Made by a program: the position numbers and the translations under genes
IMG/VR virus record: IMGVR_UViG_3300020042_005969
Span: 1 to 30,909 of that record
DNA from: a virus
Taxonomy: Duplodnaviria > Caudoviricetes
DNA length: 30,909 bases
Strand: one strand, 5' to 3'
Notes under the pieces: generated by a model
What the model saw: the letters and a program-made list of their open reading frames with translations, nothing else
Database searches by the model: none
Told to the model about the DNA's origin: nothing
Part shown: piece after piece, positions 8,225-30,909 of the stretch
How positions within the stretch are numbered: the stretch's first letter is position 1
Layout of the letters: each line of letters begins with the position of its first letter

Positions 8225-8248
8225 AACCCTCGTACCCATAAAAATAAG

Positions 8249-10089: not shown

Positions 10090-10202
10090 ACGACGATGAC
10101 GAAGATTTTTTTGTTGACGCGCTGAAGACCATCATCGGGGTGATCTTTGTGGTGCTGGTCGTGGCGACCGTTGGTGCTGTTATGTGGGAGGTGTTTGCAT
10201 GA
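10086..10202 (+). CDS. Small membrane protein (38 aa, MNDDDEDFFVDALKTIIGVIFVVLVV...), not in the ORF track
   Basis: GAGG SD, ATGA overlaps at both ends. Confidence 0.72.
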   Translation: MNDDDEDFFVDALKTIIGVIFVVLVVATVGAVMWEVFA

Positions 10203-10937: not shown

Positions 10938-11097
10938 AGAAGACGACGACATTCAAGACTACAAGCGCCCGTGGGTAGGGCTGACAGATGAGGAGATTGA
11001 GGGTTGTGTACACCATGTAGATGATGAGGCTGTATTCGGGCTTCCTGATTTTGCCCGTGCCATTGAGCAGTTGTTGAAGGAGAAGAACAATGAATAA
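10930..11097 (+). CDS. Hypothetical protein (55 aa, RPWVGLT type)
   Basis: AGGAG SD; ...FARAIEQLLKEKN. Confidence 0.8.
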   Translation: MIEEDDDIQDYKRPWVGLTDEEIEGCVHHVDDEAVFGLPDFARAIEQLLKEKNNE

Positions 11098-11302
11098 AGA
11101 CGAAGCATTGCAGATGTGCCTTGAGTACATTGAGACAGACGCGCATGAACGTAAGCATGTGCGCCATGCCATCAAAGCAGCATTGGCACAGCCAGCGCAG
11201 GAGCTTGTGGCGAGGGAATGGAACTTCTGCGAGAGGTGCGGTAAGCGCACAAAGGACATGACCACGATTCACACATGCACACCACCACAGGAGGGCAAAT
11301 GA
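11090..11302 (+). CDS. Hypothetical protein with CERCG..HTC zinc module (70 aa)
   Basis: AAGGAG SD; C-terminus paralogous to gene 10425. Confidence 0.8.
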   Translation: MNKDEALQMCLEYIETDAHERKHVRHAIKAALAQPAQELVAREWNFCERCGKRTKDMTTIHTCTPPQEGK

Positions 11303-11472
11303 TTGAAGAAGACGATGACATCCAAGACTACAAGCGCCCGTGGGTAGGACTGACGCAGCAGGAGGTTGACGACTACTGGGACTGGGAAGATTGGCAGACA
11401 GGGGCTGGCCGCTCAACCATATTGGAAATGGTTAGGGACATTGAATCTAAGTTAAGGGGTAAGAACATATGA
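11299..11472 (+). CDS. Hypothetical protein (57 aa, RPWVGLT type)
   Basis: AGGAGG SD; N-terminus paralogous to gene 10930. Confidence 0.8.
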   Translation: MIEEDDDIQDYKRPWVGLTQQEVDDYWDWEDWQTGAGRSTILEMVRDIESKLRGKNI

Positions 11473-12605
11473 TGGCTATAGCTAACTCCATTGCGGATTC
11501 AGTGCGTCAGTTTTTGGACAAACTGTTTAAACGGTTTCGCGTTCCAGTCTCTGCCGTAGTCTTGGAAGTCCCACAAGCAGAACCACCGCGCAAACAGCGC
11601 AAGTACAACAAGGACAAAACAAAAACATTTTCTGATTTGCTGGACAACTTGGAGTACACGTTTAACTGTGTAAAGCTACCAACAATGAAAGAGTCATGGC
11701 TTGAAAGAGACTCTATTATTGGGTTGAAGAAGATTGGGATTCATGTGCCAAACCCGTGGAATGCAAGAATGAATCATAAAGATTCAAAGGTTGATATAGC
11801 AAAACCACTTCCTGCCATTATGTGCATTTCTACCGCTACGGCAAATACCATCAATACCAAAAAATACTTATATCCAAAGATAATATTTGCGGTTAAGCTA
11901 AAAAAACTTCCGTGGCATGTGGCAAAAAAATCAGGAACACCCTATCAATTTGGCATGGCATGTGATTTAGATGATAAACTTTTTTGGATTTGCATGTACA
12001 TGACTGTAAATAAATCAACAGGGGAGATACAGTTTTGTGATGAATTAAGGGTCAAGGCACATAAAATTAACCGACAAAAAACTTTTTACAGTAAGACATG
12101 GAGTGGCCCATCGTATCTTGAAGATGTTTTGAGGACAGTAGAAGAAAATAAAAATCTTGCCAAGAATTTATTTGTTGCTATGCATGACTGGTGGTCAGAA
12201 CGAGATGCGCGTTGGAATGTTGTTGTTAGAAAGAATGGCGACCGAGTTACTTTCGGGGTTGATAACAGCCAGACCCCGTATTACTTTAAAGACAGAGACA
12301 AGAGCATCAAGACGGCAACAGGTCAGACCAAGAAGATTGTCCACTACGTCAAAGAACACGACAGAAAAATTAACGACAAGACAACTGTGGTGAAAGAACA
12401 TATACGGGGGCTTCAGGACTTTAATTGGAATGGCTACAACTGTCTAGTTGTGTCACCCAAACTCCAAGCACAAACATCAGCAACCTTTACAATTCCTGCC
12501 GGTGATGATGACTCGGAACCAAGCAATGTGGTCTACCTTAGTAAGGTTGGCAAACTGTTGGCAGACTTAGAAGAAAAGCGCATACCAAAGAAGAGGTCTG
12601 CATGA
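11469..12605 (+). CDS. AT-rich hypothetical protein (378 aa) with HxVxxHxR...VxxHxRG motif
   Basis: Long ORF; IVHYVKEHDR...VVKEHIRG. Confidence 0.88.
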   Translation: MMAIANSIADSVRQFLDKLFKRFRVPVSAVVLEVPQAEPPRKQRKYNKDKTKTFSDLLDNLEYTFNCVKLPTMKESWLERDSIIGLKKIGIHVPNPWNARMNHKDSKVDIAKPLPAIMCISTATANTINTKKYLYPKIIFAVKLKKLPWHVAKKSGTPYQFGMACDLDDKLFWICMYMTVNKSTGEIQFCDELRVKAHKINRQKTFYSKTWSGPSYLEDVLRTVEENKNLAKNLFVAMHDWWSERDARWNVVVRKNGDRVTFGVDNSQTPYYFKDRDKSIKTATGQTKKIVHYVKEHDRKINDKTTVVKEHIRGLQDFNWNGYNCLVVSPKLQAQTSATFTIPAGDDDSEPSNVVYLSKVGKLLADLEEKRIPKKRSA

Positions 12606-12682
12606 CCAAATGGGACAATTTTATAAATTGACACCATCAAGAAATGGGTGGTTCCTCACGGAGAATACACAGGAGAACGCAA

Positions 12683-12889
12683 ATGATTGATGACAAAGAG
12701 CAGATAGACAGGATGAAGGAAGCTTTAGCCAAGGCCATGAAGCGTGTTCCTGAGTCTGTGGCTAACGGTAGCTACCAACGGGCTGTTCAGTACAAGTCTG
12801 ACTACCTCAAGGCACAGAAGATTCTCAACAAGAAGACACCCAAAATCAACGAACTAGGAAGTGCTTTAAACACTATGAAACATGACTGA
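12683..12889 (+). CDS. Hypothetical protein (68 aa)
   Basis: AGGAG SD before ATG 12683. Confidence 0.75.
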   Translation: MIDDKEQIDRMKEALAKAMKRVPESVANGSYQRAVQYKSDYLKAQKILNKKTPKINELGSALNTMKHD

Positions 12890-13088
12890 ACAAATTATTG
12901 ACTACGCACTTCCCTGCATGAAAGCAGAGCAAGCCCTGAAGGATGCACACAACGCATTCATTGAGAACAAGCTGGACTTGGCTCTGACCCGCACGATGGA
13001 TGCAATCATTGACGTACGACTGATGTATGCCGCTCTGCGTCATGCAAAAGAGACCTCTACTGTTTACACGGAGAACAAGAATGCTTGA
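12882..13088 (+). CDS. Hypothetical protein (68 aa, IDYALPCMKAEQALK)
   Basis: Overlap-coupled in the operon. Confidence 0.75.
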   Translation: MTEQIIDYALPCMKAEQALKDAHNAFIENKLDLALTRTMDAIIDVRLMYAALRHAKETSTVYTENKNA

Positions 13089-13332
13089 ACCTAGATACCG
13101 GCAGATGCTCATGGACTCAGTTGACTCCAAGAGGATTGAAGAGAAGGATTATGTTTTGGAGAACCCGAAGCTTGAGGCGACTATTAAGCTCATCAAAGCT
13201 GAGTGCCCTGAGAAGTTTCACTCTGACCACTCTATTGAGGAGAGAACTTTTTATGATGAGCCAGCCGCTCCTCGGGCTCCTGTTCGCAACTCAGGGTTTA
13301 TTCGTCCTATGCCTAAGCGAAATCGCTATTGA
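13081..13332 (+). CDS. Hypothetical protein (83 aa, ...ECPEKFH...)
   Basis: GGAG SD before ATG 13081. Confidence 0.75.
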   Translation: MLEPRYRQMLMDSVDSKRIEEKDYVLENPKLEATIKLIKAECPEKFHSDHSIEERTFYDEPAAPRAPVRNSGFIRPMPKRNRY

Positions 13333-13610
13333 TGAGGTACAGCAAAATCAAACCAAACCTGCGGGAGATTCTGCATGGTTATGAAGATGGTTTAACCATC
13401 AACGATTTGGTTGTGAAGACGAGTCTTGATGGTAGTAACTTGAGGCGTGTTCTTGCAGACATGGATGATGTTTACATCGACAGGTGGTCTGTATCTCAGT
13501 ATCAAAGGCCAGCCCAAGCCGTGTATTGCATAGTGAAGATACCTGAGGATTGCCCCAAACCAGCAAAGGAACCAAATGAAAAGAGAGCTTATAACCGAAG
13601 AGTCCGTTGA
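13332..13610 (+). CDS. Putative winged-HTH protein (DGLT...YIDRW type)
   Basis: LREILHGYEDGLTINDL...NLRRVLADMDDVYIDRW...AVYCIV. Confidence 0.72.
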   Translation: MRYSKIKPNLREILHGYEDGLTINDLVVKTSLDGSNLRRVLADMDDVYIDRWSVSQYQRPAQAVYCIVKIPEDCPKPAKEPNEKRAYNRRVR

Positions 13611-13857
13611 GGCTCTTGTAAAAGAGATGGATGAGGACGACAGGAACTACCTCTCCATATACACACACATGATGATGATGGCTTTTGCAAATAGAGGCAA
13701 CGTCAAAGTTGCGATTATTTTTGACACTGATGATTCATCAGGTGTTGCAGCTATCAACATGACCAGCGAGGAAGTTGTAAGTGCTCTTGAGAATGCTCAC
13801 AAGCATCTTTATGAAGTGATTACTAGAGACATGCCCCCCAAGGGAATGCTCAACTAA
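13576..13857 (+). CDS. Hypothetical protein (93 aa)
   Basis: AAGGA SD. Confidence 0.78.
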   Translation: MKRELITEESVEALVKEMDEDDRNYLSIYTHMMMMAFANRGNVKVAIIFDTDDSSGVAAINMTSEEVVSALENAHKHLYEVITRDMPPKGMLN

Positions 13858-14057
13858 TGAATGAACACGACGAAAACCTCAGAGACCTAGCGGCTATGTT
13901 CGCTATGTGCGGTTTGGTGATGCGTAACGGCCCTGATGCTAGTACTCTCTCTAAAGCGTTTGAAATTGCGGATGAGTTCATGGCTGAACGTTTAAACGTT
14001 GGTCATGGCCTAGTGTCTATCAAACCCGCCAAGGCAAAGCGTGACGTACAGAAATGA
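13857..14057 (+). CDS. Hypothetical protein (LRDxxAMxAMxG...ADxxMAER type)
   Basis: LRDLAAMFAMCGL...AFEIADEFMAER; TAATG coupling. Confidence 0.8.
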   Translation: MNEHDENLRDLAAMFAMCGLVMRNGPDASTLSKAFEIADEFMAERLNVGHGLVSIKPAKAKRDVQK

Positions 14058-14063
14058 CAATCA

Positions 14064-14342
14064 ATGCATAGCAAAAACCTAACCAAACGGGACAGAGAGC
14101 ATTTATTGCAGGTGAAGTCTTTGTCTTGCGGGGTATGCGGTGCTAGTGCGCCAAGTGATGCACATCACATTGAACAAGGACTGCATTTCATATGCATACC
14201 GTTATGCAAGGACTGCCATCAGGGCTCACACAATGGAATACATGGACGCAGAGCAATGTGGAGTGTGCTAAAGAAGACGGAGCTTTCCGTCCTCAATGAC
14301 ACAATCAGTAGATTGCTTACGGTCGGGCCATCTTCTGCATAA
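14064..14342 (+). CDS. HNH-type / Ref-like zinc nuclease
   Basis: CGVCG...DAHHI...CIPLCKDCHQG..NGIH. Confidence 0.8.
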   Translation: MHSKNLTKRDREHLLQVKSLSCGVCGASAPSDAHHIEQGLHFICIPLCKDCHQGSHNGIHGRRAMWSVLKKTELSVLNDTISRLLTVGPSSA

Positions 14343-17300
14343 CCTGAATTTCACTGGTCAACGCATTTTGCGTCTTGTTAATTTCGTCTAGCATCATTCG
14401 CTTCTCCTCTGCGGGCATCGGGGTAGAACGAATCATTGCAGCCTGAGCACTGAGCTTCTGCATCTGCTTGTCCACTGAGGATACGTAGCCCCTCATCCCG
14501 TACATCGATATGTTCTTCTCAATGTACCCCTGAAGTTCAGGACTTCCCTGTTTTGAAAGCAGATTGACTGTACGTACAACTTGGTCAACCGAATTTTTTA
14601 GGTCGTAGAAATCACTTACCTGACCCCTTGCTTCAGGGTCAAGCAGAAATCGTCTTATCACAGCAGTCTGTTCAAAGCGTTGAGATGCCTTGGGGTTATC
14701 ACTACCTGCGCTAAATACAGAATCCATTACATTCGCTAGGTACATGCCCATTGTTCCCGTGTAGCCCTTGTACACATGGTCAATCATTATGGGAGACATG
14801 CCAGTCTGCTTACCAAGGAACTCTGCAATCTTCGTGGTCTTCTCGTTGATTTGAAACTCAGGGGCAATGTTTCCCATTGCTTCGCCCACAATGGGACGCT
14901 GTGTAAACACCGAGTAGTTGTACTGAGCTTCCAGAAGTGGAGCAATAGCTTGGGGCACAGGGTTAAACGCAAAGGTGGACAGCAGGGCTCTCTGCATGGA
15001 GTCGCCCAACTGTTTTGATGTGTCTGTTCCGTAGGAGTAACGGTAGATACGTTCTGGGATAGTTTTAAACAGAACCCCGACCTCAAACGGGATTGGCAGC
15101 TTGATGCCAAGACTTGGTATGAGCCAGTTGTTGTCCTTGGTCTCTTGTTCCTGTTTCTCGTAGTCAGGGTCTCCCATGATTGCTGCGGCGTACATAGTAC
15201 TCAGGGCCATCATAGTTGCCCCACGAATCAACATAGCCTTCTGAACCTGCTTCTCGTAGGCGGTCGAGTTCTTGTCATAGAAGGGTCGGATACCTGCACG
15301 GAAGAACACATCCAGACCTTGGACACGGGCGTTCAAGAACGGGATGGCAGCGGCTGCAATACGCACTATGGCAGAGCGTCCCTTGCGGTTGAAGTTCAGC
15401 ACCTCTACCGCCCGACGTATAGCCTCTGCCTCGTTGCCAGTTTCCTTCAGGGTGGCTTCGTAGACAGCCATACGCGTTGCAGCATCGGATGCCTCTGTTC
15501 CACGCTCAAGGAATCCCCAGACATTTGCAAATGGTTTAAACAGTTGCTCTGACTTGGTCTGAGTTCCGGTCTTTTTACGGAGGTCTGCGGCGAAAGCTTC
15601 TGCTCCGGCTTCCACGTTACGGGAGTATTCGTATCCACCGATTGCACCTGAATTTAGCAGTGCTTGATAGACCGGAGAGCGGTTCATGATTGCAGCGCCA
15701 AAGTTCTTGACGGTGGAGATGACGGGCTTGATGTTTGCACCGCTGGTGACGTAAGCGGACAAGGAGTCACGCATCATGTTGGCAAGCATGAAGCCGGGGT
15801 CTTTGGTGACCAAGCTTCGGAGCAAGTCTGCTGGCGCTGAAAGAATGCTGAGGAACGGCAACTCAGGCAGGTTTAAACTGCTGACAGCCTCAATGAAGAG
15901 TTTGTCTGCACATTGATAGGACACCTTCTTGCCATTCTCCAGAATGGTGATTGTGTCTGGCGCAGAGGCGACCGCAGGCAACTTCGTAACCATGCCCAGC
16001 ATCATTCCATTCTTCACAGCCTTCTGGGCTGCAAGATTCTTCATGCTGGATTGGATGGCAGCTTGAGTGTTGCGAACGATGGTCTCAAGGTAGTCCTCAA
16101 TAGGAGCATCGCCCTTGCCTTTTAGGGTCTTGGGAGGTTTGACACCGCTGATGCTTTGGTAGACGCTTGGGCCAAGCGTTGTGCGCCCATCCATCTGACG
16201 GTACAGGGGGATGTAGTCGGAGTACTTCATAAACTCAGCGCCTGCCGCTGGGGTAATCACACCAGCATCAACTTGCAACTTGACCAGCGCGTTGTTGTAC
16301 TTAATCCAGTCCTGCTGGACGGTAACAAACTCAGGGTACTTTTGGCTTAGGGTCAGGGCATCCTTGATTTCTGCGGGGGTCAGCAACTCAAAGCGACCCT
16401 CACGGTACAAACGGGTTCCCCGTTTAGCTGCACTCCAAATCTGGTACAGCCGGTAGATGTCAGGGTCACCGCGACTGGCTAAAGGAGAAAGGATTTCTAG
16501 AACGCCTTTGACTGTGCCGTTTAAATTGTCAACGGTGACATAGCCGTTCTTCAGTACTGGAGCACCACCCATGCGGTCGCCAACGCCCAATGCAGACGCT
16601 GTAACACCAGCAGCCATGTCAGAGTTTAAGGAGGCCCAGTGTGCGCTTTGGTCTGCAAGTAGGTCTATGCCACCCATCTGCTGGGCAACCATCTTGTCGT
16701 AATCGTTTAAACGGTTATAACGGTCAAAGAAATTTTGACGGAAATAGCTCCATGCCTCTGGTGCTAGAGCATTTATGACGCGCTCCGCAAAGCCTTTGGT
16801 CTCCCGTGGGGGAGTGACCCTGTTCATGGTCGCCAAGATGGCTGCACCATTGGGCATGTTGCTCAGGTCGTTCTTGACGTTAGTGCGTAGGCTCTTACGA
16901 ATATCAGGGTTGTTGATATCGTATGTACCTTCATTGCCGGTGGCAGACTTGAGTTGGTTAGAGTCATAGACTGCTAGGTTCTTCTCGTTGCCCTGCTTGA
17001 TGTAGAAGCTATCAAACCCAGCAGCGCGAATTGCATTCTGCACTCGGTCAGATTCCAGTCTAGCAACATTGTTAGCAAGGCTATCTGTGGTTACATCCTT
17101 CAGGCCAAGTTCTTTGATGTGGTCTTGATTCTCGTAATCAAAAGGCCGTTCAGCCCTCACAAACACCGGCATGATGTTTTTACCGGAAGCAGGGAATAGT
17201 TTGTCGGCTGCGGTCTTTAAAAAATCGGAAGCCTCTCCCGTTGGGTTAGACGATTTGATTTCTTTAATGAGACCGGAAGCTTCTTTGGAAAAGCCGTAGG

Positions 17301-20300
17301 AACTCTTAACGTCTGCAATAGCTTGAGCCCTAGACTTAGCCAGCTCCTGTGGGGAGTAGCTTGATAGCTGACGCTCAAATGCCTTGTACCCTGCCGCTGT
17401 TTCTGCATACTCATCTGCGAACTGAGGACTGTCCGTCAGGAAGATAGCCCCGGCTTGCTTAGGTTTAAACGTAGTAATGTCTTGGGCTGTCCCGTGGTAC
17501 ATGACCCTCGGGTTGCCGTCTGCATCAACTATCTTGCTGTCGCCAAAGAACCGTTTAAACTCAGGTGTATCTGGTGCTGTGCGAAGACTGGCTCTGGTAA
17601 CCGGTGCTTCTGGCAGGCTTGGAAGTTTGTTTACAAGCGGGCTCTTTTCTGAAAGGCTGCCCAGCTTCTGCTTGGCATTCAAGGTTCCGATGTACTGAAG
17701 CATGGGCGCATCAACCGCCTCATCGCCCGTCAATGTAAACGCTACAGGCGGCAAGGAGGCCTTCTGGTCAGCAAAGCCGCGTTCTTTCAGGGCGACATTC
17801 TTTACCTCGGGGCGGAAGTTCTGCCATGCATTCTGTGCCCGTGTCTCGTTAGTCAACGCCCAACGTGCCAATGGGTCAGTGGTGGTTGCCATGTGGTTCT
17901 TCCACGCAGCAAACTCACCCTTAGGGCCAAACTCTGTATCGCTCAGGTTGTGGGCAAAGTAATCGTGTACAGCCCGCAACAGGTCGTTGTACAACATTGT
18001 TTTACCGTTGATGTCCTTCATACCGGAATCACCAAGTAATGGGTGACCGGTGAAGTCCACACCCTCAGGCCCGAATGTGTTGGCATCCGTCTTGAGAACC
18101 TTGAAGGTGTTGTTTAGGCTGACATCCTTGCGCATCTCTGCGCTGTTCTTGTAGATGTCAATGTAATTCTTGTTCTCGTCAAATTTGGGGTCAGTCAACT
18201 CTACCTTGATTGGTAAAGCCTCGTACTGACGTTTGACTTCCTTCGCAAGAGCCTCGTATGCATTACGCACAATAGGCTTCTTGAGGTCGTTCTTGGGCAG
18301 GGCCTGAAACACATCCTTGAGGACGGTTTGCTCTTGTACCTGCGCTTTGGTTAAAGCTTTCTGCTCAAACGCCTTGATTGGATGGCGAGTGAGGTACTCC
18401 CCGATTATTCTCGGGGTTGCTTTGTCTGAGTCCTGCTTGGGACGAACGATGCCACTGATGTCAGCGTATCCGAGTCTTGCCCCATATCCTCGTCCGTAGA
18501 CTGCAAGACGTTGTGTTTGGAATTGAAGTCTGCCGTCATCTGCTCCATAGCTTTCATAAATTCCCTCGAGCTTGCTGAGGAATTCCTTGTATCCTGCTGT
18601 GTCATTCTCTTCTCCTTGTACGTGATATGCGGTTAGGTCTGTTGCTGAAACAGAGAAACCTTTAAGTCCTGCGTTGTTGACGATATCAACAATGTCCTGC
18701 TCCGTCAATTCTTTTTGAAGCTTGACCGTGTAGACAGGGGTTGCGTATGTTCCATCGCCAAAGTCGTGACCAACCTTGTATGCGGTCTTAGTCCTGACGT
18801 GGATTTGCTCTTGGTTGAAGTTGTCAGCAAACTTGGCAAGTGCGGCTAGGACAGCGGCATTGTCTGATTCCTTGAACCGTACTTGTGCCACGATGGCTGG
18901 CTCACGGTCAGACTCGTACACACCCTTCACACCACTGACAGTAACTCTAGCGTTTGTCCCGCTCAGAAGGTGCTTCAGTGTGCTGGCTGCAACATTCTGC
19001 AACACAGCATAAGCCTCTGCATCACCGTTTAAAGCACGAGTGTGCAATAGGTCAAGGCCCGGAATGCTCTTTGTCACAGCAGACAGGTTGACGATTGCCT
19101 TATCGACTAGCTCTTTTCCTTTACGCAGTCGGACTCCACCTTCTGGTGTAAACGACATGTCAAAGCTACCGCCACCGTCTTCTACGAACTCACCCTCACC
19201 GGAGCTAAACCAGTCTGGGCGGTCTGCTCTCTCACCAAGAGCTTCAATGTTTCTGCGTGTCTCATCAAAGGATTGCTCACCTGTGCGGAACTTAGTCCAC
19301 TCGGCACGGATGGGCTTCTTAATTTGATTCTTGATGTTCTCGGGGAACATGCCACGGACAGCTTCCCATGTGATGGATTGCATCTCACGGGGTTTCAGTC
19401 CTACCTGTCTAGCAGCTTCACGGTACGCATCTGCAATCAAGCCGTAGGTTCCGCCAACACCAATCTTGGTGTTCTTGCCAATGCCACCAAAGTTATCCAG
19501 CACCTCGGGGTCTGAGCCAGCCAATGCTTCATACAGGCCAGCAGCCACTGCATGGGTGTCAATGGTGACATGACCTATCGGGCTGTTTGGTGAAACGATG
19601 TTGTTGTAGAAGGAACGAATCTTGTGCTCTTCTCCAAGCTGTTGGCTGATGTTTTCACGGCTTGGGTCGCGGAAGATGCTGACGGTCTTCTCAATCGGGC
19701 TGTAAGTTGACCACATCATGGTGGCTGTCTTGGCTGCACCGGTTTCTTTGTCAACGTTCTTGTTCATCACAAAGCCACCGAACCCACCCTCAGGAGTAAC
19801 GATACGGTACTTGCGGTCATGGAACGCTTCGTCGTAAGCGCGTACAAACGCAGCAGCGTCCTTGACGCTCATGTCTTTGAGCTTGACTTGCCTACGGCTC
19901 ATTTCTGAGATTCGTTTGTCAAAGAAAATCTGCCGCTTCTCACGGTCTTTCCTGTCCTCTGCCTCGTTGATGTAGCTACGTGCGTAGTCCATCATCTGAG
20001 GAGTCCAAGTGGCATCACCGTTGTTGGTCAAGATTTCAATCGCCCGTTCAGCCATTGAGACGTTCTGGAACCAATCTTTCTGCGGAGACATGGCAGCCAA
20101 GATGCCTGAGACCTGTTCCTTGCTCATGTCATACCGAGCGCCCAACTCAATGGCTATGCGGTTTGCCCCGTCATACCAAAGCTTGCTGCGCTGACGCACA
20201 TCCTCAGGCACACGGTTGTACAAGTGCAGGAGGTTGTTGACAATGTTGTCTTTGAACACCTTGATGACATCTTCATCCTTGGTGTTCGCTGGGATAAAAC

Positions 20301-23300: not shown

Positions 23301-23778
23301 TCCTGCCACGACCACCGGCAACGGAACCTAATTTTTGACCAGTTTTAGACCCCGCCAATGCACTTGCATACGAAGCGGCAAGATTAGGGGACTGCTCTGC
23401 AATAGCCAAGGGAATTTGCTTGACTGTCTCGCCAGCAGCAGACAAGAGACCATCTTTTTTGTACGTATCAAGAACTTTTTGTAAGCCAACTTGTTCGGCG
23501 TACTTCTTGTTTATTTCTTTACTCCGCTCCAATGCAGCTTTTGCCGCCTCATCGGCATCTCCAGTTGCAACTCCATAAACTGTCTTTGCAGCAGAGCCAA
23601 CTTGTGCGGTTCCTTTTTTGAGGGCCGCAAGGATTCCCTCCTTAGGAGGAGGTGGAGGATTTGCTGCTTCTGGCCTTAAAGAATATAGAGTGGCAGATAG
23701 CTGACTCTCAGAAGCACCTTCAGGAGCCTCTAAGTCGTAAATATTCCCATCAGGCGCTTGCAGTGAGTAGATAGGCAT
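14317..23778 (-). CDS. Giant polyvalent internal virion/ejection protein (3153 aa)
   Basis: Last gene of the virion module. HESIH...EEAIADAF zincin (~20520-21050); WY/SPQ/KIRSFYNN/TIDTH/QSITW domain (~19340-20230); NLSA/GVY..E/NQE domain (~18700-19100); RAVHDYFAH domain (~17750-18330); ART-like YHGT/IFLTDS/AVY (~16890-17580); LPD38-like PFLNARVQG/LPIPFEVG/PLLE C-terminus. Confidence 0.92.
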   Translation of the reverse strand: MPIYSLQAPDGNIYDLEAPEGASESQLSATLYSLRPEAANPPPPPKEGILAALKKGTAQVGSAAKTVYGVATGDADEAAKAALERSKEINKKYAEQVGLQKVLDTYKKDGLLSAAGETVKQIPLAIAEQSPNLAASYASALAGSKTGQKLGSVAGGRGRIAGGIAGGIAGIFAPSYVQSLGGNVERQAQEQVAAGKPIDINTKSAATTAIPQGAFDVVSNRILLGSKIFGKLIGIPEEVLAKGSSEAIERLAKERISATIAKGTLTGIAGEIPTEIPQQVLERYQAGLPLTGPEAMKEYGETAYQVALLGPLGIVGRMGDKSGAKAAVAQKEQAEAVARQAEQPPPPDTSSPDYAKNIATQYQAAEGRKNELLAQLRDIQKNSATETADRLHNAQIEEQVKAMTPELEQLATEYNKVLPNLPEPAKVEPAVVEGADIEGVAVEQAKKPTMTVGDALDDPVGRFSKDELISRSPKIAQYVDSVRKKQGKPEIDSYSIEDIRNAMPNQLPDAEKADLNSLIAAKTGYVGGMKYVPEDVIKVAKQKNIDTTTTGFKYFLQRATGENEIASMSQPQLHSAFKALAELPRFEEVQILPEMTNATIYNPEQYTSAVSALQGLVTKRNEAIAQEQANLKEGQQPKLKPVSVDEAQSLIKKTAKLKSDDDIKILFQDANRKGDIDLTSDGNVTLQAKGPQAEFNIEEGAAPAEKTGFNVMRGDKRLYFTENEEDAAAKAASLGKSATPAVAQIEKAIAKENSSIAAGQRALSTMESNGLFNTPQYQQASARQDSVVANAAQNIKRLNEQRDMLQQSVVVNPTGRVGNKKVFTVKEPGVSQKSFDTREEAERHALENLPAKRLNELAGQTKAPGFANRLKKEQERRKNPPKPFLAEKPEVKKEPEVKEEPKVNPKAEELQGQLLPMLRKFGLGDVALKIEEGMKDEGSYVASTIKIALDANNPVRVLRHESIHGLKDLGFFTPGQWKVLENQADKVWINKYLKQRNIDGQPLQKGQQSRFDAYQNLYANDSAAVREEAIADAFADFDVNGAPKGLFAQLLNAMRKFFRNLRSAFTGAGYETADDVFGKVERGELKATKAAEKTEETKKSLVRKAVKDESEISTQNPQAKNRLYDPLTDMLSIDEAAVRESMAQNPELEKNMIETIKSYGFIPANTKDEDVIKVFKDNIVNNLLHLYNRVPEDVRQRSKLWYDGANRIAIELGARYDMSKEQVSGILAAMSPQKDWFQNVSMAERAIEILTNNGDATWTPQMMDYARSYINEAEDRKDREKRQIFFDKRISEMSRRQVKLKDMSVKDAAAFVRAYDEAFHDRKYRIVTPEGGFGGFVMNKNVDKETGAAKTATMMWSTYSPIEKTVSIFRDPSRENISQQLGEEHKIRSFYNNIVSPNSPIGHVTIDTHAVAAGLYEALAGSDPEVLDNFGGIGKNTKIGVGGTYGLIADAYREAARQVGLKPREMQSITWEAVRGMFPENIKNQIKKPIRAEWTKFRTGEQSFDETRRNIEALGERADRPDWFSSGEGEFVEDGGGSFDMSFTPEGGVRLRKGKELVDKAIVNLSAVTKSIPGLDLLHTRALNGDAEAYAVLQNVAASTLKHLLSGTNARVTVSGVKGVYESDREPAIVAQVRFKESDNAAVLAALAKFADNFNQEQIHVRTKTAYKVGHDFGDGTYATPVYTVKLQKELTEQDIVDIVNNAGLKGFSVSATDLTAYHVQGEENDTAGYKEFLSKLEGIYESYGADDGRLQFQTQRLAVYGRGYGARLGYADISGIVRPKQDSDKATPRIIGEYLTRHPIKAFEQKALTKAQVQEQTVLKDVFQALPKNDLKKPIVRNAYEALAKEVKRQYEALPIKVELTDPKFDENKNYIDIYKNSAEMRKDVSLNNTFKVLKTDANTFGPEGVDFTGHPLLGDSGMKDINGKTMLYNDLLRAVHDYFAHNLSDTEFGPKGEFAAWKNHMATTTDPLARWALTNETRAQNAWQNFRPEVKNVALKERGFADQKASLPPVAFTLTGDEAVDAPMLQYIGTLNAKQKLGSLSEKSPLVNKLPSLPEAPVTRASLRTAPDTPEFKRFFGDSKIVDADGNPRVMYHGTAQDITTFKPKQAGAIFLTDSPQFADEYAETAAGYKAFERQLSSYSPQELAKSRAQAIADVKSSYGFSKEASGLIKEIKSSNPTGEASDFLKTAADKLFPASGKNIMPVFVRAERPFDYENQDHIKELGLKDVTTDSLANNVARLESDRVQNAIRAAGFDSFYIKQGNEKNLAVYDSNQLKSATGNEGTYDINNPDIRKSLRTNVKNDLSNMPNGAAILATMNRVTPPRETKGFAERVINALAPEAWSYFRQNFFDRYNRLNDYDKMVAQQMGGIDLLADQSAHWASLNSDMAAGVTASALGVGDRMGGAPVLKNGYVTVDNLNGTVKGVLEILSPLASRGDPDIYRLYQIWSAAKRGTRLYREGRFELLTPAEIKDALTLSQKYPEFVTVQQDWIKYNNALVKLQVDAGVITPAAGAEFMKYSDYIPLYRQMDGRTTLGPSVYQSISGVKPPKTLKGKGDAPIEDYLETIVRNTQAAIQSSMKNLAAQKAVKNGMMLGMVTKLPAVASAPDTITILENGKKVSYQCADKLFIEAVSSLNLPELPFLSILSAPADLLRSLVTKDPGFMLANMMRDSLSAYVTSGANIKPVISTVKNFGAAIMNRSPVYQALLNSGAIGGYEYSRNVEAGAEAFAADLRKKTGTQTKSEQLFKPFANVWGFLERGTEASDAATRMAVYEATLKETGNEAEAIRRAVEVLNFNRKGRSAIVRIAAAAIPFLNARVQGLDVFFRAGIRPFYDKNSTAYEKQVQKAMLIRGATMMALSTMYAAAIMGDPDYEKQEQETKDNNWLIPSLGIKLPIPFEVGVLFKTIPERIYRYSYGTDTSKQLGDSMQRALLSTFAFNPVPQAIAPLLEAQYNYSVFTQRPIVGEAMGNIAPEFQINEKTTKIAEFLGKQTGMSPIMIDHVYKGYTGTMGMYLANVMDSVFSAGSDNPKASQRFEQTAVIRRFLLDPEARGQVSDFYDLKNSVDQVVRTVNLLSKQGSPELQGYIEKNISMYGMRGYVSSVDKQMQKLSAQAAMIRSTPMPAEEKRMMLDEINKTQNALTSEIQVMQKMARP

Positions 23779-23790
23779 GAAATTTATTTA

Positions 23791-26436
23791 CTATTGAGGT
23801 CTGACATTCACAACTTTTGCATTTGGAAGTACAGAAGATGCTCCGCCTCCCTGACCGGCGAACTCTGGGTATGTTGCATTAATTGCTTGCAATAGGTTAT
23901 TAGCTTCTTTTGGATTTATTAGTTGAAGTATTTTATGTTTTGCAATAGCGTCTAAATAATCTTTTGCTCTTGTTGCTTGAGTGGCAGCATTTCTTGGTTC
24001 GGCGGAAACACCTGCGGCATCAACTCTTGCACCTGCCTGTACGCCCGCTACATTTTCTCGGGTTGCGCCTTGCAACTCAGCTATGTACCTTTTTACATCA
24101 GCATAGTTTTTGGTTTCAAAATAAAGTTTCATGGCTGAGGCGTAATCAATACCCTTCTCCTGCATGAGTCTGTTAATTATGCGCTCTGCTTCTGGAGTGT
24201 TAATGGCTTGAGTAAGTGCTGCTGTGCGCTCTTCTTTCTCACGCTCACGTTTAGCTGCAAGTGTGGCAACACCGGCAGTGCCTAGGTTCTCCATTGCATA
24301 CTGAGACTTGCCAGCAAGCAGATTGAATCCAAGGTTCAGCCAGTCATCGCTAGTAAATCCTTTGGTGGCAGCAGACTTAGGAGTCTCCTCTTTTGCCATC
24401 TTGATAATTTCTTGGGGAGAGCTTGGCGGTGCTGGGTATCTGCTTTGCAAACTGGCTATTTCACGGGCTATGTTATCTTCTTGTGGGGCTGGCTCCGCCC
24501 TCTCCGTAATTGGATACCTACGCTGTAGATTGTCTCTTTCACGGTCTATGTCATATGGCACATCCACTGGAACAGCTTGCTCCGCATTGCCTGTTGACAG
24601 ACCATCTCCAATTACATTAACTGCATTATTAAGTCTTGTTGCATCAATAATAGCATTGGCGGGTTTAATAACTTGATTGAGCTTGTTAGCTTTTTGGGCT
24701 GCATCAATAGCATCAAGACCTCTTTCAGCACCTGTTGCTAATTTGGTCTCTTCTGCAATCTTTGCAGCATTGACCGCAGCTTGCTCATCAGCTTTCAGGT
24801 TCCGAAGTGCTTGTGCATTTCTGGCTGCTGCAAGTTTTTGATTCATCTCAACAGCGTCAGCACCAAGAGGATATGTTCTACCTGCATCGTCAACCTTGCT
24901 GACAGCAGGTGCAGAATTTTTAGCAGCACGAGCAGCCGCAACCTGTTGATTCATCTTTACTGCTTCTGGGCTAAGAGGGAACCGTGTCCCCTGAGAAGTA
25001 AGACCACGCTTTGCTTTTTCTGCATCAGACAGAGCCTCTAGTCCTACTGTAGGCTTAGGCGGCACTGGGACTGGAGTGGCAAGTCCACGACGGATTTTTT
25101 CTTCATCGGACAAGGCATCAACACCACCCCGTGCGGTAGATACAGGGGGAGAGAGACGTACATTGGCAACTTTGGCGGCAGCAGCAGCGGCGGCTTCATC
25201 TGCTTGAGCAATTTTGGCAAGCCTAGCGGCATCCGCTGCTTTGTCAGCAGCAGACATTGCCTTGGGAATTCTGAAGGGGCCCGTAAATCCTGCTGTTGCA
25301 TTCAGAGTGTTAGAAGCGTTCCGCTGAAACTCTTGGCTCAGTCCAGCATTACTAGCCGCTCTTTCAAAAAACCCACGGGTATCTTCTACAGGCAATCCAT
25401 TGGGGCCAATAAACTGTTCTCTAGGAGCAATCCGTTCGCCAACACTTCCCATGCCTTCATATATTCTTTTGAGTTGGCCTAACACGCTGCGGTCAACTTC
25501 TCCTGTCGTTCCACTTTCAGGTACTTGAGCACCTCCGCTTGTTCTAGCCGGTAGCGGGTATCTTGCTGAAGCCTGACTTTGCGGGGCAGCTTGAGGAGTT
25601 ACTTGTGCTGGAGCTTGTGGAAGCTCTCCCGCATTGGCAGAAGATATGATTGAGTTACCACCACGAGGTGCTGCTGCAACTTGACCAGTGATTGGCCTGA
25701 AACTAGCCATGCGCTTGGCAACATCATCGCCATATTCTAAAGTTGTTGGGTAGTCTGGATTCTTTGGGTCAGCTACTGCAATGCCTTTTCTGGCTTTGTC
25801 TAAACCACCGGGGCCACCATAATAATATGCACCAGCAAGTCTAGGGTCTCCGCCAGCCAGTTTATAACCTTGACTGGCATAACGAATTCCAGCCCGCATG
25901 TTGTCTAGTGCGTTGTCAATCTTCATACCGGGAGATGCAACAGATTTAAACGTTTCCGGCAGTATCTGCATCTGACCAACTGCACCACGATTGGAAGTGG
26001 TTGTGTTTGTCCCGCTTCCAGTTTCCTTGCTATAGATGGCTTTTAGAAACGCTCGACGGATAGGGTCTGTTACGCCTTCCATATCCAGTGCAGTGTCAAA
26101 GCTGGGTTCAGCCTTTACTTCTTTGCCATCTTTAAACGCAACAATCCCACCGGTTGCCATGCCACGCATATTGGGTGCAGGCAAGGCTCCAATGCCTTGC
26201 TGCTCTGGAAGAACGCTTTGCTGAGGAACGTCCATTTGAGCAATAGCTGTATCAGCTACCTTGGGCTGCTGCTGCGCCTGCTGTTGACCTCCTGTGCGGA
26301 TTTCTTTCCTGCGATTGGATTCGCTGATAGCCAATGAAACTGTGTACGGGTCATCCCTGTGCATCTGAGCAAATTGCTTCAGCGCTTGGTCTGGCATCTT
26401 TGACAGACGGGAGGCGATTTGATTTACGTTCAGCAT
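23791..26436 (-). CDS. Internal virion protein with lytic transglycosylase (SLT) domain (881 aa)
   Basis: AIYSKETG (catalytic Glu), SNRGAVGQMQILPET, NMRAGIRY, AGAYYYGG. Confidence 0.88.
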   Translation of the reverse strand: MLNVNQIASRLSKMPDQALKQFAQMHRDDPYTVSLAISESNRRKEIRTGGQQQAQQQPKVADTAIAQMDVPQQSVLPEQQGIGALPAPNMRGMATGGIVAFKDGKEVKAEPSFDTALDMEGVTDPIRRAFLKAIYSKETGSGTNTTTSNRGAVGQMQILPETFKSVASPGMKIDNALDNMRAGIRYASQGYKLAGGDPRLAGAYYYGGPGGLDKARKGIAVADPKNPDYPTTLEYGDDVAKRMASFRPITGQVAAAPRGGNSIISSANAGELPQAPAQVTPQAAPQSQASARYPLPARTSGGAQVPESGTTGEVDRSVLGQLKRIYEGMGSVGERIAPREQFIGPNGLPVEDTRGFFERAASNAGLSQEFQRNASNTLNATAGFTGPFRIPKAMSAADKAADAARLAKIAQADEAAAAAAAKVANVRLSPPVSTARGGVDALSDEEKIRRGLATPVPVPPKPTVGLEALSDAEKAKRGLTSQGTRFPLSPEAVKMNQQVAAARAAKNSAPAVSKVDDAGRTYPLGADAVEMNQKLAAARNAQALRNLKADEQAAVNAAKIAEETKLATGAERGLDAIDAAQKANKLNQVIKPANAIIDATRLNNAVNVIGDGLSTGNAEQAVPVDVPYDIDRERDNLQRRYPITERAEPAPQEDNIAREIASLQSRYPAPPSSPQEIIKMAKEETPKSAATKGFTSDDWLNLGFNLLAGKSQYAMENLGTAGVATLAAKREREKEERTAALTQAINTPEAERIINRLMQEKGIDYASAMKLYFETKNYADVKRYIAELQGATRENVAGVQAGARVDAAGVSAEPRNAATQATRAKDYLDAIAKHKILQLINPKEANNLLQAINATYPEFAGQGGGASSVLPNAKVVNVRPQ

Positions 26437-26444
26437 GATTTGCC

Positions 26445-27980
26445 TTACATTTTACTTAGAGCCAACTCAACCAATCCACCGGTTTTTTTGGTTGTAGTGG
26501 TTCCGCCAAACAGACCCTGAGACAGGGCCCCAAGTCCAGCAACTTGACTCAATGTAGAAGGGGGAGCCTGATAAACAGACGTTCCTAAATTGGAAGTTGG
26601 AGTCCCACGGATGATGTCCGACATGAAATTAAGCTGCTTGTACGGATTGTTCTGTTGGTTCAAGAAATCTTGATACTGCTGGCTCAGAACGTTTTGGGTT
26701 TGCTGTTGTTGCTGACCACCAAATGCATTCTGAATGCCCAAGGCATTGGCCTGTTGCCCGTAGATGTTCTGTCCCACAGCGCCAAGGTTGCTCATACCCT
26801 GCATACCGGCTTGAAGGCCCTGTAGACCAAGACCCGCACCATACTGGCGCGACTGCTCGTTAAGCTGGTTGGCTGACTGCCCGTACTGAGCGCCTAAGCT
26901 TGCCGCTTGTAGGTTCTGGCCTGCGTTGAACTGCCCCGCTTGGTTCTGAGCGGCTTGATTAGCCAGCGCGGTCTGCTGATTTAGCTGGCCTTGTTGCAGC
27001 CCAAACTGGCTCTGCGTCTGCTGGTTAGCCAGAGCAGCTTGTAAAGCCTGTTGTGCGTTTAAACCTTGCGTTTGTAGTTGTGCAGCTTGATTCTGCACAT
27101 TGGCCTGCTGTTCCGCAGACAAGTTAGCCAGCGAGGTTTGTAGCCCTGTCTGTGCGCCAAGCTGCTGAACACCAAGTGCTGCGCTTAGGTTTTGTCCGCC
27201 CGTGGTGAGCCCTGCCTGCTGGTTTGCCTGTTGTGCTGCCAAGCGGGCCTGCTGTTCTGCGTTGAACTGCTGCTGCGCTTGCTGGTACGCAGCTTGGGAG
27301 CCCTGCGCTTGGATGTCGCCCATCTGCTGACTTAGATTGCGCTCACGTTCCGCCCGCATGATGGCATCACGACCCCCGCCAAAAGCTCCGGCTTGCGCCG
27401 CCTGTGCCTGCTGTTGCGTACCTTGAATACCCGACTGGCGTTGTGCTTCGCGCTTTTGGATGTCCACCACGCTCTGCATGTACGGAGACATGTAAGCATC
27501 TGCTGCACCGGGCTGGGCAAAGCTTTGTGTGTTTACACGTTCAGCAGGCCCCATCTGAAAGTTTTGCAGACCGGGGTTGTACCCAGTTTGCGCCGTGTTC
27601 ATCATTGGCGCGTTGTATTGCCCTGCACTAACCATCGGGGCGCTGTTTAAATTTGTATTTTGCGCAGTCTGTGCGCCGTAACCAATCCCCTGTGGGTTAA
27701 ATTGATTGCCGTAGTTGCTTGGGTTGTATCCGGTGTTGGCAGCCCTGTTTGAATAGTCAAGCAGTCCTGATGCCGCATCAAGGGATGCCCCGGACGGGCC
27801 CAACTGTCCAGCGCCAATAAACGACTGTTGCTGTAATGGATTGAACTGAGCAATCCGTTCTTGACCGTATGTTTGATACGGAGAACTGGTGAGTGCTTCA
27901 GCTTTACCTAAAAGGGTCTGAGCATAGGGAGCTACTTCAGGTGCAAAACCTACCGAGTTGATGTATGTTGCGTCTGCCAT
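26445..27980 (-). CDS. Gln/Ala/Gly-rich DNA ejection (pilot-like) protein (511 aa)
   Basis: YMSPYMQSVVD, AGAFGGGR, repeated ANQ motifs; position among ejection genes. Confidence 0.8.
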   Translation of the reverse strand: MADATYINSVGFAPEVAPYAQTLLGKAEALTSSPYQTYGQERIAQFNPLQQQSFIGAGQLGPSGASLDAASGLLDYSNRAANTGYNPSNYGNQFNPQGIGYGAQTAQNTNLNSAPMVSAGQYNAPMMNTAQTGYNPGLQNFQMGPAERVNTQSFAQPGAADAYMSPYMQSVVDIQKREAQRQSGIQGTQQQAQAAQAGAFGGGRDAIMRAERERNLSQQMGDIQAQGSQAAYQQAQQQFNAEQQARLAAQQANQQAGLTTGGQNLSAALGVQQLGAQTGLQTSLANLSAEQQANVQNQAAQLQTQGLNAQQALQAALANQQTQSQFGLQQGQLNQQTALANQAAQNQAGQFNAGQNLQAASLGAQYGQSANQLNEQSRQYGAGLGLQGLQAGMQGMSNLGAVGQNIYGQQANALGIQNAFGGQQQQQTQNVLSQQYQDFLNQQNNPYKQLNFMSDIIRGTPTSNLGTSVYQAPPSTLSQVAGLGALSQGLFGGTTTTKKTGGLVELALSKM

Positions 27981-27989
27981 TTCAATTCC

Positions 27990-30509
27990 TTATGCTGGAA
28001 GGTGACGAGCAGCTTTGCTGTTTTTTGCCACTTGCTTCTTACCGACGGTCTTTCGGCGACCGGCTTGGATTCTGTCCATCATCTTGTACAACTCACGAGC
28101 TCCTGCGTCAGTAGAACCGTTGCCAAGTTCTGACACGATTCGCGCAGGAATCACAAATTCGCCATCTGCAAGGCGGGCTGGCTGACCCCGACCAATTGTA
28201 GCTGGGATAGAGTCAGACACACCATCTCCGGGGCCCTTGAGCAAGCGCCCGCCATCGGAGTAGGAACCGAGGTTGTATTGGTGCGTTAGGGCGGCTATGC
28301 CGCCGTGAGCCATGCGTTGGTCAAACCGACCGTGTTGTAGGTAACCACCTCTGGCATCACCACGGTCACTATCATTGCTATAACCTCCACTCTCACCACC
28401 GCCGCTGCTTTCGCCGCCGCCATAACCGCCTTGACCGTCGTGTGCTGCACCCGGAGAGCTTCCTACATCTTGACCATAGCCTTGTTGTCCATCGTGTGCT
28501 GCACCGGGAGAGCTTCCTACATCTTGACCGTAGCCCTGCTGCCCATCGTGTACACCTCCATAGCCGCCTTGCCCCTCATGGGCAGCGCCGGGAGTCGTTC
28601 CTACAGGGTTAAAATCCGGAGTCCCCGGCCCCATGTTGTACGGGTTTGGTGTGATACCTGTGGGATATCCGCCAAAAACGTCTGCCTCAACATCAGGTGT
28701 GACTGGAGTGCGCTCATACCTTGCTGGGCCACCTGTGCTGCTTTCTGGCCCAAAGTAGTCTTGTATTTTGTCGTAGGCAAATTTAAGCGGGGAGGCAATC
28801 AGCCCCACCACATCTTGTGCTATTGCCGCGTTAGGGTTTTCTAACCGCCACGCTTCTCTTTCTGCGGGGCCCATTGCTGCCCACTGGGCGCTAAAACTGT
28901 TAGGGTCTTCAGGCTCATTGCGGTCACCACCCCCGCCACCACCCACATCTCGCACTGGTGCTTCAAACACAGGTGGTGCAATATCTACGGGGGTTATAGG
29001 GTCAGGAATAAATTTGTACTGTCCTGTTATAGGGTCAAACTCATAGCGACCTTTACCCGTTTTGGGCTTGTTTGGGTCAGGTTGCATTCCGTCTTCAGGA
29101 ATTCTGGGCTGCATTCCCGGCGGGAATGGGCGGTTGGGGTCGTATGGGGGGTATTGCCCACCACCGCTTGTTGGATTCACGCCCATCAGGTAGTTGTACG
29201 CATCGCGTGAAGCGCCATACATATTGTTTTCTGGCGGCGGGGTTGTCGGCCTAAATAAAGATTGCCGGTCGTACCTACCAAGGTTAGATTGGGGGTTTAA
29301 TCCATAAGAAAACATAGATTGACCCGGAGGAGGGGAAGAAGATATAGGCGGGTTGATTGGCCTACTTTCTTGCGGAGGCACAGATTGGCCCGGAGGAGGG
29401 GAAGATATAAATGGGTTGGTTGGCGTATTTTCTTGCGGGGGCACAGATTGGCTTGGAGGAGGGGAAGAAGATACGGGCGGGTTGATTGGCGTATTTTCTT
29501 GCGCTAAACGCCCCAAGTAAGACTCATACGCCCTGTCGTTTTGCCTACCCAAGCTCCCTGAGCCTACCGACCCAAAGTATGGGGAGTCGTACATGTCCGA
29601 CGTACCAATCATGCCGAACGGGTCATCACTACTGTTCGCCTTCAAATAAGCCTTGTATTCGGGAGATTCAAAGTACGCGTTACCCGGCCCTACTGCGGGA
29701 GAGGGTGTTGCACCCGCATAACCACCACGAGCCAAAGCCACCAAGCCACCGTTTGCAGCGGAGTAGGGGTCACCGGCTGTGTAGAAATCATTGAAATACC
29801 GGCGCTCCCCAGATACAGGGCCTGCGTATTCCTGTTGAGGGTATGTCTGCTGCCGTGAGAACGTTTGAGGACGAATCATGCCCCGGTTGGGTGCTGGAGT
29901 GGCGGTTTTTACATTCTGGTCAGCCATGATTGCCGGTGCTGCTGCGGCAAATGCAGTTCTTGCAGCGTTTAAACCACTACCACCACCAAAAGAGGTAATA
30001 GCCTCCATTGGTTTATTTGCAAACATATTGCCAAATTTACTAGCACCTTCGCCCACAGCGGTTTTGTAAGCGTCGCCTTTTAATGCAGTCATAGCTGCTT
30101 CTGATGCGGGGGTTGTTGCTGTTGCTGCTGCTCCCTCCCCCACCAAACCCATACCTGCAAGACCTCCAACCATACTGCCACCGCCCCAAGCTCCTAGACC
30201 TGCCATCAAGCCCTTGCCCAAGTCTTTGGAGTCCAGTGCAGAAATGCCACCGACAATACCAGCCGCCATCATGGGGGTGATTGCGCCGCCGCTGAAGTAA
30301 GTAAGCCCCGCCCCTGCAATGGTGGGAATAAGGCTGTCCAAAAATCCTGCTTCAGGCAATCCTGTATCGGGGTTTACAGTTAGTTCTCCGCCATGTTTCT
30401 TTGCAAGTGCTTGCAATCCCGCCACTTCCCGGTTGGACATGTGGACGAGGGTCGAGTCTGGGCCACGGCCCTTTTGGGCTAGGTGATTGGCAACAAGTTG
30501 AAGGCTCAT
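27990..30509 (-). CDS. Virion/ejection-associated protein (839 aa) with conserved ends and low-complexity middle
   Basis: N-terminal GRGPDSTLVHM...TVNPDTGLPEA; C-terminal GPGDGVSDSIPA...ARLADGEFVIPA...GNGSTDAGA, motifs I recognise from podophage structural modules. Confidence 0.85.
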   Translation of the reverse strand: MSLQLVANHLAQKGRGPDSTLVHMSNREVAGLQALAKKHGGELTVNPDTGLPEAGFLDSLIPTIAGAGLTYFSGGAITPMMAAGIVGGISALDSKDLGKGLMAGLGAWGGGSMVGGLAGMGLVGEGAAATATTPASEAAMTALKGDAYKTAVGEGASKFGNMFANKPMEAITSFGGGSGLNAARTAFAAAAPAIMADQNVKTATPAPNRGMIRPQTFSRQQTYPQQEYAGPVSGERRYFNDFYTAGDPYSAANGGLVALARGGYAGATPSPAVGPGNAYFESPEYKAYLKANSSDDPFGMIGTSDMYDSPYFGSVGSGSLGRQNDRAYESYLGRLAQENTPINPPVSSSPPPSQSVPPQENTPTNPFISSPPPGQSVPPQESRPINPPISSSPPPGQSMFSYGLNPQSNLGRYDRQSLFRPTTPPPENNMYGASRDAYNYLMGVNPTSGGGQYPPYDPNRPFPPGMQPRIPEDGMQPDPNKPKTGKGRYEFDPITGQYKFIPDPITPVDIAPPVFEAPVRDVGGGGGGDRNEPEDPNSFSAQWAAMGPAEREAWRLENPNAAIAQDVVGLIASPLKFAYDKIQDYFGPESSTGGPARYERTPVTPDVEADVFGGYPTGITPNPYNMGPGTPDFNPVGTTPGAAHEGQGGYGGVHDGQQGYGQDVGSSPGAAHDGQQGYGQDVGSSPGAAHDGQGGYGGGESSGGGESGGYSNDSDRGDARGGYLQHGRFDQRMAHGGIAALTHQYNLGSYSDGGRLLKGPGDGVSDSIPATIGRGQPARLADGEFVIPARIVSELGNGSTDAGARELYKMMDRIQAGRRKTVGKKQVAKNSKAARHLPA
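28420..28600 (-). repeat. In-frame 54-bp repeats (HDGQQGYGQDVGSSPGAA)
   Basis: Two full and two partial copies. Confidence 0.9.
29319..29503 (-). repeat. In-frame 63-66-bp repeats (QENTPINPPVSSSPPPSQSVPP-like, x3)
   Basis: Three degenerate copies visible in DNA and protein. Confidence 0.9.
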
Positions 30510-30518
30510 AAATAGTCC

Positions 30519-30909
30519 TTAGACGGCGGCTATAGGAAGCGCGGAGACAAATGACATTGTAGCTACCACAGACTGCGTGGATGGCTTGGTTGGGCTACCT
30601 GATGCAGCAAGATGCTGGATAGAAACGGCTGTGTTGGGTATAGACCAGTAAATCTCTACGTAGTCATTTGCCTCCATATACAGGAAGTAGTTCCAGCCAA
30701 CAATTGCATGCCCGTCCGTTCCGGCATGCCTGTTTGGGATAGATACAAAACCTGTTGAGCCAGAAATATCTACGCCGTTTTGCTGTAACCAGATGTAAAC
30801 GTCTTGAAACGCAGTATCGGTGTTTTGGAACTGTGTGCTGAACTGCAAGTTGTATATACCGGAATTTGCCACCGTGATTTTTGAACTTGCAATGCTGACA
30901 CCGTTGGCA
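30519..30909 (-). CDS. Virion/tail protein, beta-sandwich C-terminal domain (5'-partial)
   Basis: Frame open to the window end (ANGVSIASSKITVANSGIYNLQFSTQF...DYVEIYW), C1q/TNF-like strand pattern. Confidence 0.75.
   Translation of the reverse strand, partial: ANGVSIASSKITVANSGIYNLQFSTQFQNTDTAFQDVYIWLQQNGVDISGSTGFVSIPNRHAGTDGHAIVGWNYFLYMEANDYVEIYWSIPNTAVSIQHLAASGSPTKPSTQSVVATMSFVSALPIAAV

Follow-up and report, generated by a model that had tools for sequence, protein, structure and literature searches.

The 8-bp palindrome GTTTAAAC is a selected, dispersed DNA element in a freshwater phage contig, and in related and cultured phages it is found together with a gene for a SprT (Spartan)-like protein, whose zinc ribbon we favor as its candidate reader. 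We analyzed the entire IMG/VR record IMGVR_UViG_3300020042_005969 (Caudoviricetes; linear, 50% complete according to CheckV), hereafter referred to as the window, whose 30,909 nt hold ten exact copies of the palindrome; freshwater sequencing runs contain DNA of this contig, and six of them were compared with it. The window consists of a left arm (1..10700) akin to phages of a PolA lineage and a right arm (11160..30909) akin to phages of a SprT lineage, and all ten copies lie in the 19.7 kb of the latter.

Selection acts on the palindrome at the DNA level

A preliminary description of the sequence had counted the ten copies by eye, all inside genes and in two reading frames, and we recovered every one of them (10/10 within genes, four read as Phe-Lys and six as Leu-Asn). 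Their number lies far above chance: Dinucleotide shuffles (n = 100) yielded a mean of 0.50 copies and a maximum of 2, an order-3 Markov model predicted 0.85, and codon-preserving, gene-wise shuffles of the 13 right-arm genes (n = 1000) gave an expectation of 0.62. This last comparison, which the preliminary description had singled out as decisive, left the excess standing, as no shuffle contained more than 4 copies. Among all 256 palindromic 8-mers, GTTTAAAC ranked first in the codon shuffles with z 12.2, the runner-up reaching z 3.8; among right-arm 8-mers it ranked second, after the overlapping word CGTTTAAA, and its flanks displayed a weak C/G bias only. The core TTTAAA occurred 26 times in the window versus 3.8 expected, whereas most 6-bp palindromes were depleted there and GATC was found 6 times versus 94 expected. 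Codon choice is consistent with the earlier view that amino acid content is an unlikely cause: TTT-AAA spells 10 of the 17 Phe-Lys pairs, and TTA-AAC spells 12 of the 39 Leu-Asn pairs even though TTA makes up 51 of 614 Leu codons.

The right arm additionally contains 6 copies of ATTTAAAC, 5 of GTGTAAAC, and 4 of CTTTAAAC, each exceeding the codon shuffles, and this spectrum of variants matches that of three right-arm relatives (G006, G007, and G008). Apart from these four words, no further palindromic 8-mer came near such an excess in the right-arm codon shuffles. Because the excess persists in codon shuffles, we conclude that the enrichment is real and that selection acts on the DNA. One-mismatch copies number 23 in the window, of which 20 lie beyond 11.4 kb, in agreement with the many 7/8 variants noted earlier, save that two of these had been placed one base off and actually lie at 25944 and 27645. 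The reported absence from the first 11.5 kb was also borne out, as all ten exact copies lie beyond position 11,524 (P 0.009 under a uniform distribution). Literature searches for GTTTAAAC or GTGTAAAC as a described site returned nothing relevant, with most subscription journals outside their coverage and the GTGTAAAC results judged by title among those listed.

Two of the sites are exact in most word-rich relatives, while other sites turn over. For arbitrary aligned 8-mers, the baseline of exact matches was 2-7% in distant loci, 14-31% in near loci, and 81% in L424, which represents a nearly identical strain of the right arm. By comparison, the copy at 15871..15878 (Leu-Asn frame) was exact in 10/16 aligned SprT-lineage loci and in 0/5 loci outside, and that at 17553..17560 (Phe-Lys) in 11/15 aligned SprT-lineage loci, which, together with the excess over codon shuffles, upholds the earlier proposal of a selected dispersed site. 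Both lie in the giant gene of a 3153-aa polyvalent protein (14317..23778, minus strand), which houses six of the ten sites; the other four are 15534..15541 (Phe-Lys; exact only in G006 and L402 and lost even in L424), 16705..16712 (Leu-Asn), 17463..17470 (Phe-Lys), and 21382..21389 (Leu-Asn). To the left of the giant gene, a copy at 11525..11532 (Phe-Lys) stands near the 5′ end of a 378-aa gene, and one at 13990..13997 (Leu-Asn) in a 66-aa early gene (13857-14057) is exact in G006, L402, and L424. The last two, both in the Leu-Asn frame, are missing at the aligned place in other genomes: 27057..27064 in a 511-aa gene (5/5 genomes) and 29967..29974 in an 839-aa gene (6/6 genomes).

The palindrome accompanies a SprT-like gene in freshwater relatives

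Searching with the giant gene, we found G006, G007, and G008, all of which combine the palindrome with a gene for a SprT-like protein carrying a zinc ribbon. G006, the nearest kin of the right arm, shares its gene order across the small early genes; its 48.8 kb contain 23 copies, and the SprT-like zinc-ribbon gene is present at E 1e-91. G007 has 54 copies and the gene, and G008 has 35 copies and the gene. A motif scan that covered 5/64 parts of the viral collection (125 stretches, 124 of them scored) yielded 14 word-rich loci, of which 12 contained a member of a single gene family with HExxH and a zinc ribbon, 1 a lone ribbon, and 1 neither. The lone ribbon (L213, 2211-2396; about 55 aa, E 4e-4) resembles the tail of the SprT-like protein, and the 6.9 kb of its locus hold 19 sites; its presence in a word-rich locus suggests that the ribbon is the reading part of the protein. 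Conversely, all 80 of the 80 loci recovered by means of the SprT-like gene were enriched in the word. Outside the SprT lineage, the gene was present in 0/19 records, 12 of which were at least 90% complete, and these records contained 0-5 copies of the word.

The window itself gave no match to SprT or ribbon profiles, the CxxC proteins at 10425-10937 and 14064-14342 included, and the link between word and gene therefore rests here on the relatives. The window offers a within-family control for the pairing. Relatives found through terL or the 511-aa gene had suggested that the word is private to this contig (0/114 loci of at least 9 kb with more than 2 copies; 162 loci in all), but this comparison is misleading because terL belongs to the left arm and the lineages are not told apart by the 511-aa gene. 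In the SprT lineage, we also noted a LexA-like DNA-binding gene right before terL (L201, 2166-2429; E 2e-11), a possible partner or substrate.

Word and gene recur in cultured phages

We extended the comparison to 11 cultured records, hand-picked from 164 matches to the gene. In 8 of the 9 ribbon-bearing phages tested, GTTTAAAC or GTGTAAAC was among the top three 8-mers. The former reached this rank (observed/expected) in Bas97 (6/0.51), Mica (7/0.12), Pan1 (16/0.20), R5C (17/0.52), and Alexa (8/0.99), and the latter ranked first in Emotion (17/0.30), Percival (14/0.30), and JackieB (41/1.62). Neither word was enriched in LK3 and Epa43, whose protein has a tail without cysteines. The gene-sharing phages with the word span four proteobacterial host genera, Escherichia, Burkholderia, Acinetobacter, and Dinoroseobacter. 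A copy was found at most 150 bases upstream of the gene in 6/8 positive cultured phages, for which chance would be about 1e-7 if the phages were independent, which they are only partly; in Bas97 and Mica, this copy lies directly behind a -10-like hexamer. Such an upstream copy in 6/8 phages is the pattern of an autoregulated DNA-binding protein. Five of the cultured phages also have copies through their coding DNA, every 4-6 kb.

The word-gene pair occurs in cultured phages of E. coli (Bas97) and Arthrobacter (Cluster AZ) and is hence directly testable. The Cluster AZ SprT-like protease belongs to the same family, with about 40% identity, an HExxH domain, and a small C-terminal domain predicted to bind DNA; an AZ phage with a truncated SprT-like gene forms clear plaques while its near twin forms turbid ones, and the immunity repressor of the cluster is given as unidentified (10.1101/2025.05.26.655371). 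The AZ phage Emotion uses GTGTAAAC rather than GTTTAAAC. The main text of that source contains 0 occurrences of GTGTAAAC and GTTTACAC and names no site.

A ribbon-tailed zincin as candidate reader

The linked protein models as a zincin plus a zinc ribbon. The model of the G006 protein reached a pLDDT (predicted local distance difference test) of 92, and the best folds for its residues 1-128 were SPRTN (6mdx; Z 8.1, root mean square deviation 3.0, 95 aligned), abylysin (Z 7.9), and Wss1 (Z 7.8). The SprT-like Pfam match was weak (E 1.6e-4, below the cut-off), a sequence search against solved structures gave nothing below E 0.17, and the best Foldseek hit had E 7e-3. Modeled alone, the ribbon reached a poor pLDDT of 55, with Atlas matches under 0.9. 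The HExxH motif is present in G006 and intact in 41/43 non-redundant freshwater homologues.

From these comparisons, we favor, at somewhat better than even confidence, a reading in which the SprT-like protein binds the sites through its ribbon as a dimer, regulates its own gene, and serves as a genome-wide repressor or roadblock. The metalloprotease would be made first, from the early operon, and its C-terminal ribbon would bind the palindrome, probably as a dimer. A copy beside its own promoter would set the level of the protein, and through the copies within genes its reach would extend over the entire genome. It would most likely work as a repressor or roadblock, keeping lytic growth and superinfection under control, while its protease domain would act on whatever proteins it encounters on that DNA. 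The palindrome is thus a candidate target for the product of a widespread but unexplained phage gene that is annotated just as "SprT-like protease"; should the protein bind, it would be a new kind of sequence-specific reader, with sites kept inside genes through codon choice.

A number of observations weigh against this reading. Both the reader gene and the ribbon are missing from the window in profile searches. The 80 and the 14 freshwater loci constitute one phage family and are not independent, so that the link in these loci alone is confounded by ancestry, and the cultured set was hand-picked (11/164). G009, G010, and G012 have the gene yet contain only 2, 0, and 5 exact copies of GTTTAAAC; their favored words are ATTTAAAC in G009 (34 versus 5.2), GTGTAAAC and GGTTAAAC in G010, and ATGTAAAC in G012. 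Brahms has a divergent ribbon and neither word. The G006 gene has no GTTTAAAC in the preceding 400 bases, and across the freshwater family, the word density is low just upstream of the gene, with a peak 750-1250 bases up. The 511-aa and 839-aa genes of the window are closest to those of G005, a genome with one copy. The fold Z-scores are within reach of unrelated models, and G007 lacks HExxH yet has the most copies (54). The AZ plaque pair, as described, also differs at three other places.

The main rival holds that the job of the sites is chiefly protective: They would anchor an active Spartan-like protease that destroys host defense or silencing proteins loading on the phage DNA. We consider this unlikely, though a serious contender. 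The HExxH motif intact in 41/43 freshwater homologues, the fold nearest to SPRTN and Wss1, and the spacing of copies every 4-6 kb through coding DNA in five cultured phages all speak for it, and Spartan proteases clear DNA-bound proteins (10.1101/2025.05.26.655371). Yet G007 keeps its 54 copies without the motif, and the promoter-side copy in 6/8 cultured phages fits regulation. A wider proposal, to which we give only slightly more credence and which remains tentative, is that phages label their genomes by means of an 8-bp palindrome in coding sequence on which a sequence-specific Spartan-like protease docks to cut proteins loading there, a self-addressed system that would have spread among phages of many bacterial phyla. 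SPRTN and Wss1, the best fold matches among DNA-dependent proteases, are understood to be recruited to DNA-protein crosslinks and not to sequence (in part from 10.1101/2025.05.26.655371).

The arrangement also resembles the stoperators of Cluster A mycobacteriophages, where one phage protein, the L5-type repressor, recognizes at least 20 copies of a short site genome-wide, some of them at promoters (PMC9283540). We found such dispersed copies here as well, with 10 across the 19.7 kb of the right arm and 23-54 per genome among G006-G008. However, stoperators are asymmetric 13-mers oriented with transcription, in contrast to 8-bp palindromes; they lie in short intergenic spaces, whereas 10/10 of our sites are inside genes, with a promoter-side copy in 6/8 cultured phages; and they are bound by a monomer with a helix-turn-helix (PMC9283540), whereas the partner here is a predicted zincin with a zinc ribbon. 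For the transcription block and immunity of a stoperator system, the AZ plaque phenotype is an indirect hint at most. Given these three differences in defining features, we do not class the sites as a stoperator array.

The contig probably joins two phages

The left arm contains a partial terL, terS, and early genes and no exact copy of GTTTAAAC. Across 1-8 kb, it shares 82-95% identity with L447; its kin L447, L448, and L449 hold 0, 1, and 0 copies. In the kin of the left arm, which lack the SprT-like gene, the next genes encode PolA, a PD-(D/E)XK nuclease, and an SNF2 helicase. In the kin of the right arm, the small genes are instead preceded by Toprim-DnaB (a primase-helicase module), RusA, and Sak. 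Both the PolA/SNF2 set and the Toprim-DnaB/Sak/RusA set are missing from the window, although every far-reaching relative has one of them. The best match flips from left kin to right kin at about 10.7-11.5 kb, in a join zone (10700..11480) where small-gene modules shared by the lineages occur as two near copies (10789-11000 and 11160-11369). Profiles of palindrome avoidance agree between the left arm and L447 (0.79) and between the right arm and G006 (0.82) and less so between the arms (0.48), and the G+C content is 44-52% in the right arm versus 54% in the left. The window TerL is only 46-48% identical to those of G006-G008 and 42-49% identical to those of HTVC023P, HTVC027P, and DSL-LC04, whereas the C-terminal part of the 3153-aa protein is 82% identical to G006. 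Public contigs bridge 11407-11915, 12455-12718, 13982-14620, and 13985-14427, and from about 11.4 kb onward, the right arm is therefore coherent. Among public contigs at 95% likeness, cover was missing over bases 10720-10803 in 3/4 runs and no join-spanning piece was among the matches listed, although such a hole is no proof.

Since the window is without either replication module and without the SprT-like gene, we regard it, with good confidence, as an assembly chimera of two phages, in which the word-free left arm would be foreign to the right arm. The word-density boundary is then probably an artefact, and the SprT-like gene of the right parent would lie in its lost early arm, as in G006. 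The word-free 11.5 kb is uninformative about DNA entry or translocation: The stretch belongs to the other lineage, and because full SprT-bearing kin have many sites in their early arm, the gap represents no entry-order effect. More generally, an abrupt change in the density of a word can serve as a marker of chimeric viral contigs.

The alternative that the contig is a genuine recombinant appears improbable; such a genome would have shed the two replication modules along with the reader gene, and its sites would be relics or be read by the protein of a co-infecting phage. The two lineages could meet in one host, as they share small-gene modules (77-90% DNA identity), capsids (82-90%), and site avoidance, the nearest kin of both arms avoiding GATC, CCAGG, and CTGCAG; the avoidance and the capsids suggest similar hosts for both. 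The absence of both replication sets, unlike in every relative that reaches far enough, and the fact that the near-identical L424 retains the G006 gene order upstream argue against recombination. Matches to metagenome-assembled genomes, tried as a pointer to the host, comprised 7 contigs in 7 unrelated bins and were uninformative.

Cyanobacteria have an iterated 8-bp palindrome in coding DNA and in several frames, HIP1, which is a feature of the host chromosome tied to host methylases. A comparable host origin of GTTTAAAC, a possibility raised earlier, is very improbable, whether the word were written or maintained by a methylase, by a repair pathway, or by a DNA-binding protein of the host. 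Both arms do carry a strong host-driven word bias, with GATC, CCAGG, and many 6-bp palindromes near zero, but L447-L449 share this avoidance and, counted in the phage genomes, contain almost none of the word. Among the kin of both arms, the word is confined to carriers of the SprT module, and in phages of four proteobacterial host genera it tracks a single phage gene. An artefact of composition or amino acid content can be dismissed: The right arm is slightly A+T-richer, but 10 copies versus 0.62 in codon shuffles, together with the TTT-AAA and TTA-AAC usage, refute it.

Neighboring genes and further observations

Plus-strand early genes extend up to 14342 and are followed by converging minus-strand genes. 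A variable slot at 11469..12605 (plus strand) holds the 378-aa cargo gene, for which the Atlas lead is AcrVA2-like (score 0.94, 28% of cluster members); the matching slot in G006 holds a metallophosphoesterase, likewise containing a site. Small early genes with an HNH-like gene (12683..14342, plus strand) are syntenic with G006, L402, and L424 and abut the giant gene with no replication module in between. The giant protein has LPD38, ART-PolyVal, and DUF7178 domains, the last in two stretches, and an HExxH motif of its own. To the right of it, an 881-aa SLT protein and the 511-aa and 839-aa genes (23791..30509, minus strand; 2 sites) likely represent ejection proteins; both L424 and L425 show them linked to the giant gene.

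On the left arm, a near-palindrome, TGTTGCACTGTGCAAC, precedes three early genes (2016-2039, 2461-2484, and 3412-3435) and likely serves the PolA lineage as an operator or promoter; related 8-mers top the L447 list. Short hairpin-like palindromes also recur upstream of early genes, at 4191-4211 and 7706-7726 (GGGGGTAGA..GTCTACCCCC) and at 2796 and 4803 (GGGACAACT.GTCCC). At 3104-3327, a 50-base inverted repeat flanks an A+T-rich core with TATATATA and looks origin-like, and TATATATA is enriched in several terL relatives. An amidoligase gene next to a likely class II glutamine amidotransferase occupies 5037-7697, and a similar pair is found in the word-rich L213. A phage protein with an RNA polymerase alpha C-terminal domain is encoded at 9208-9582 (E 8e-16). 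In one relative (G001; L375, 2981-3781), we observed a Tet/JBP-like oxygenase (E 1e-12), which may point to base modification.

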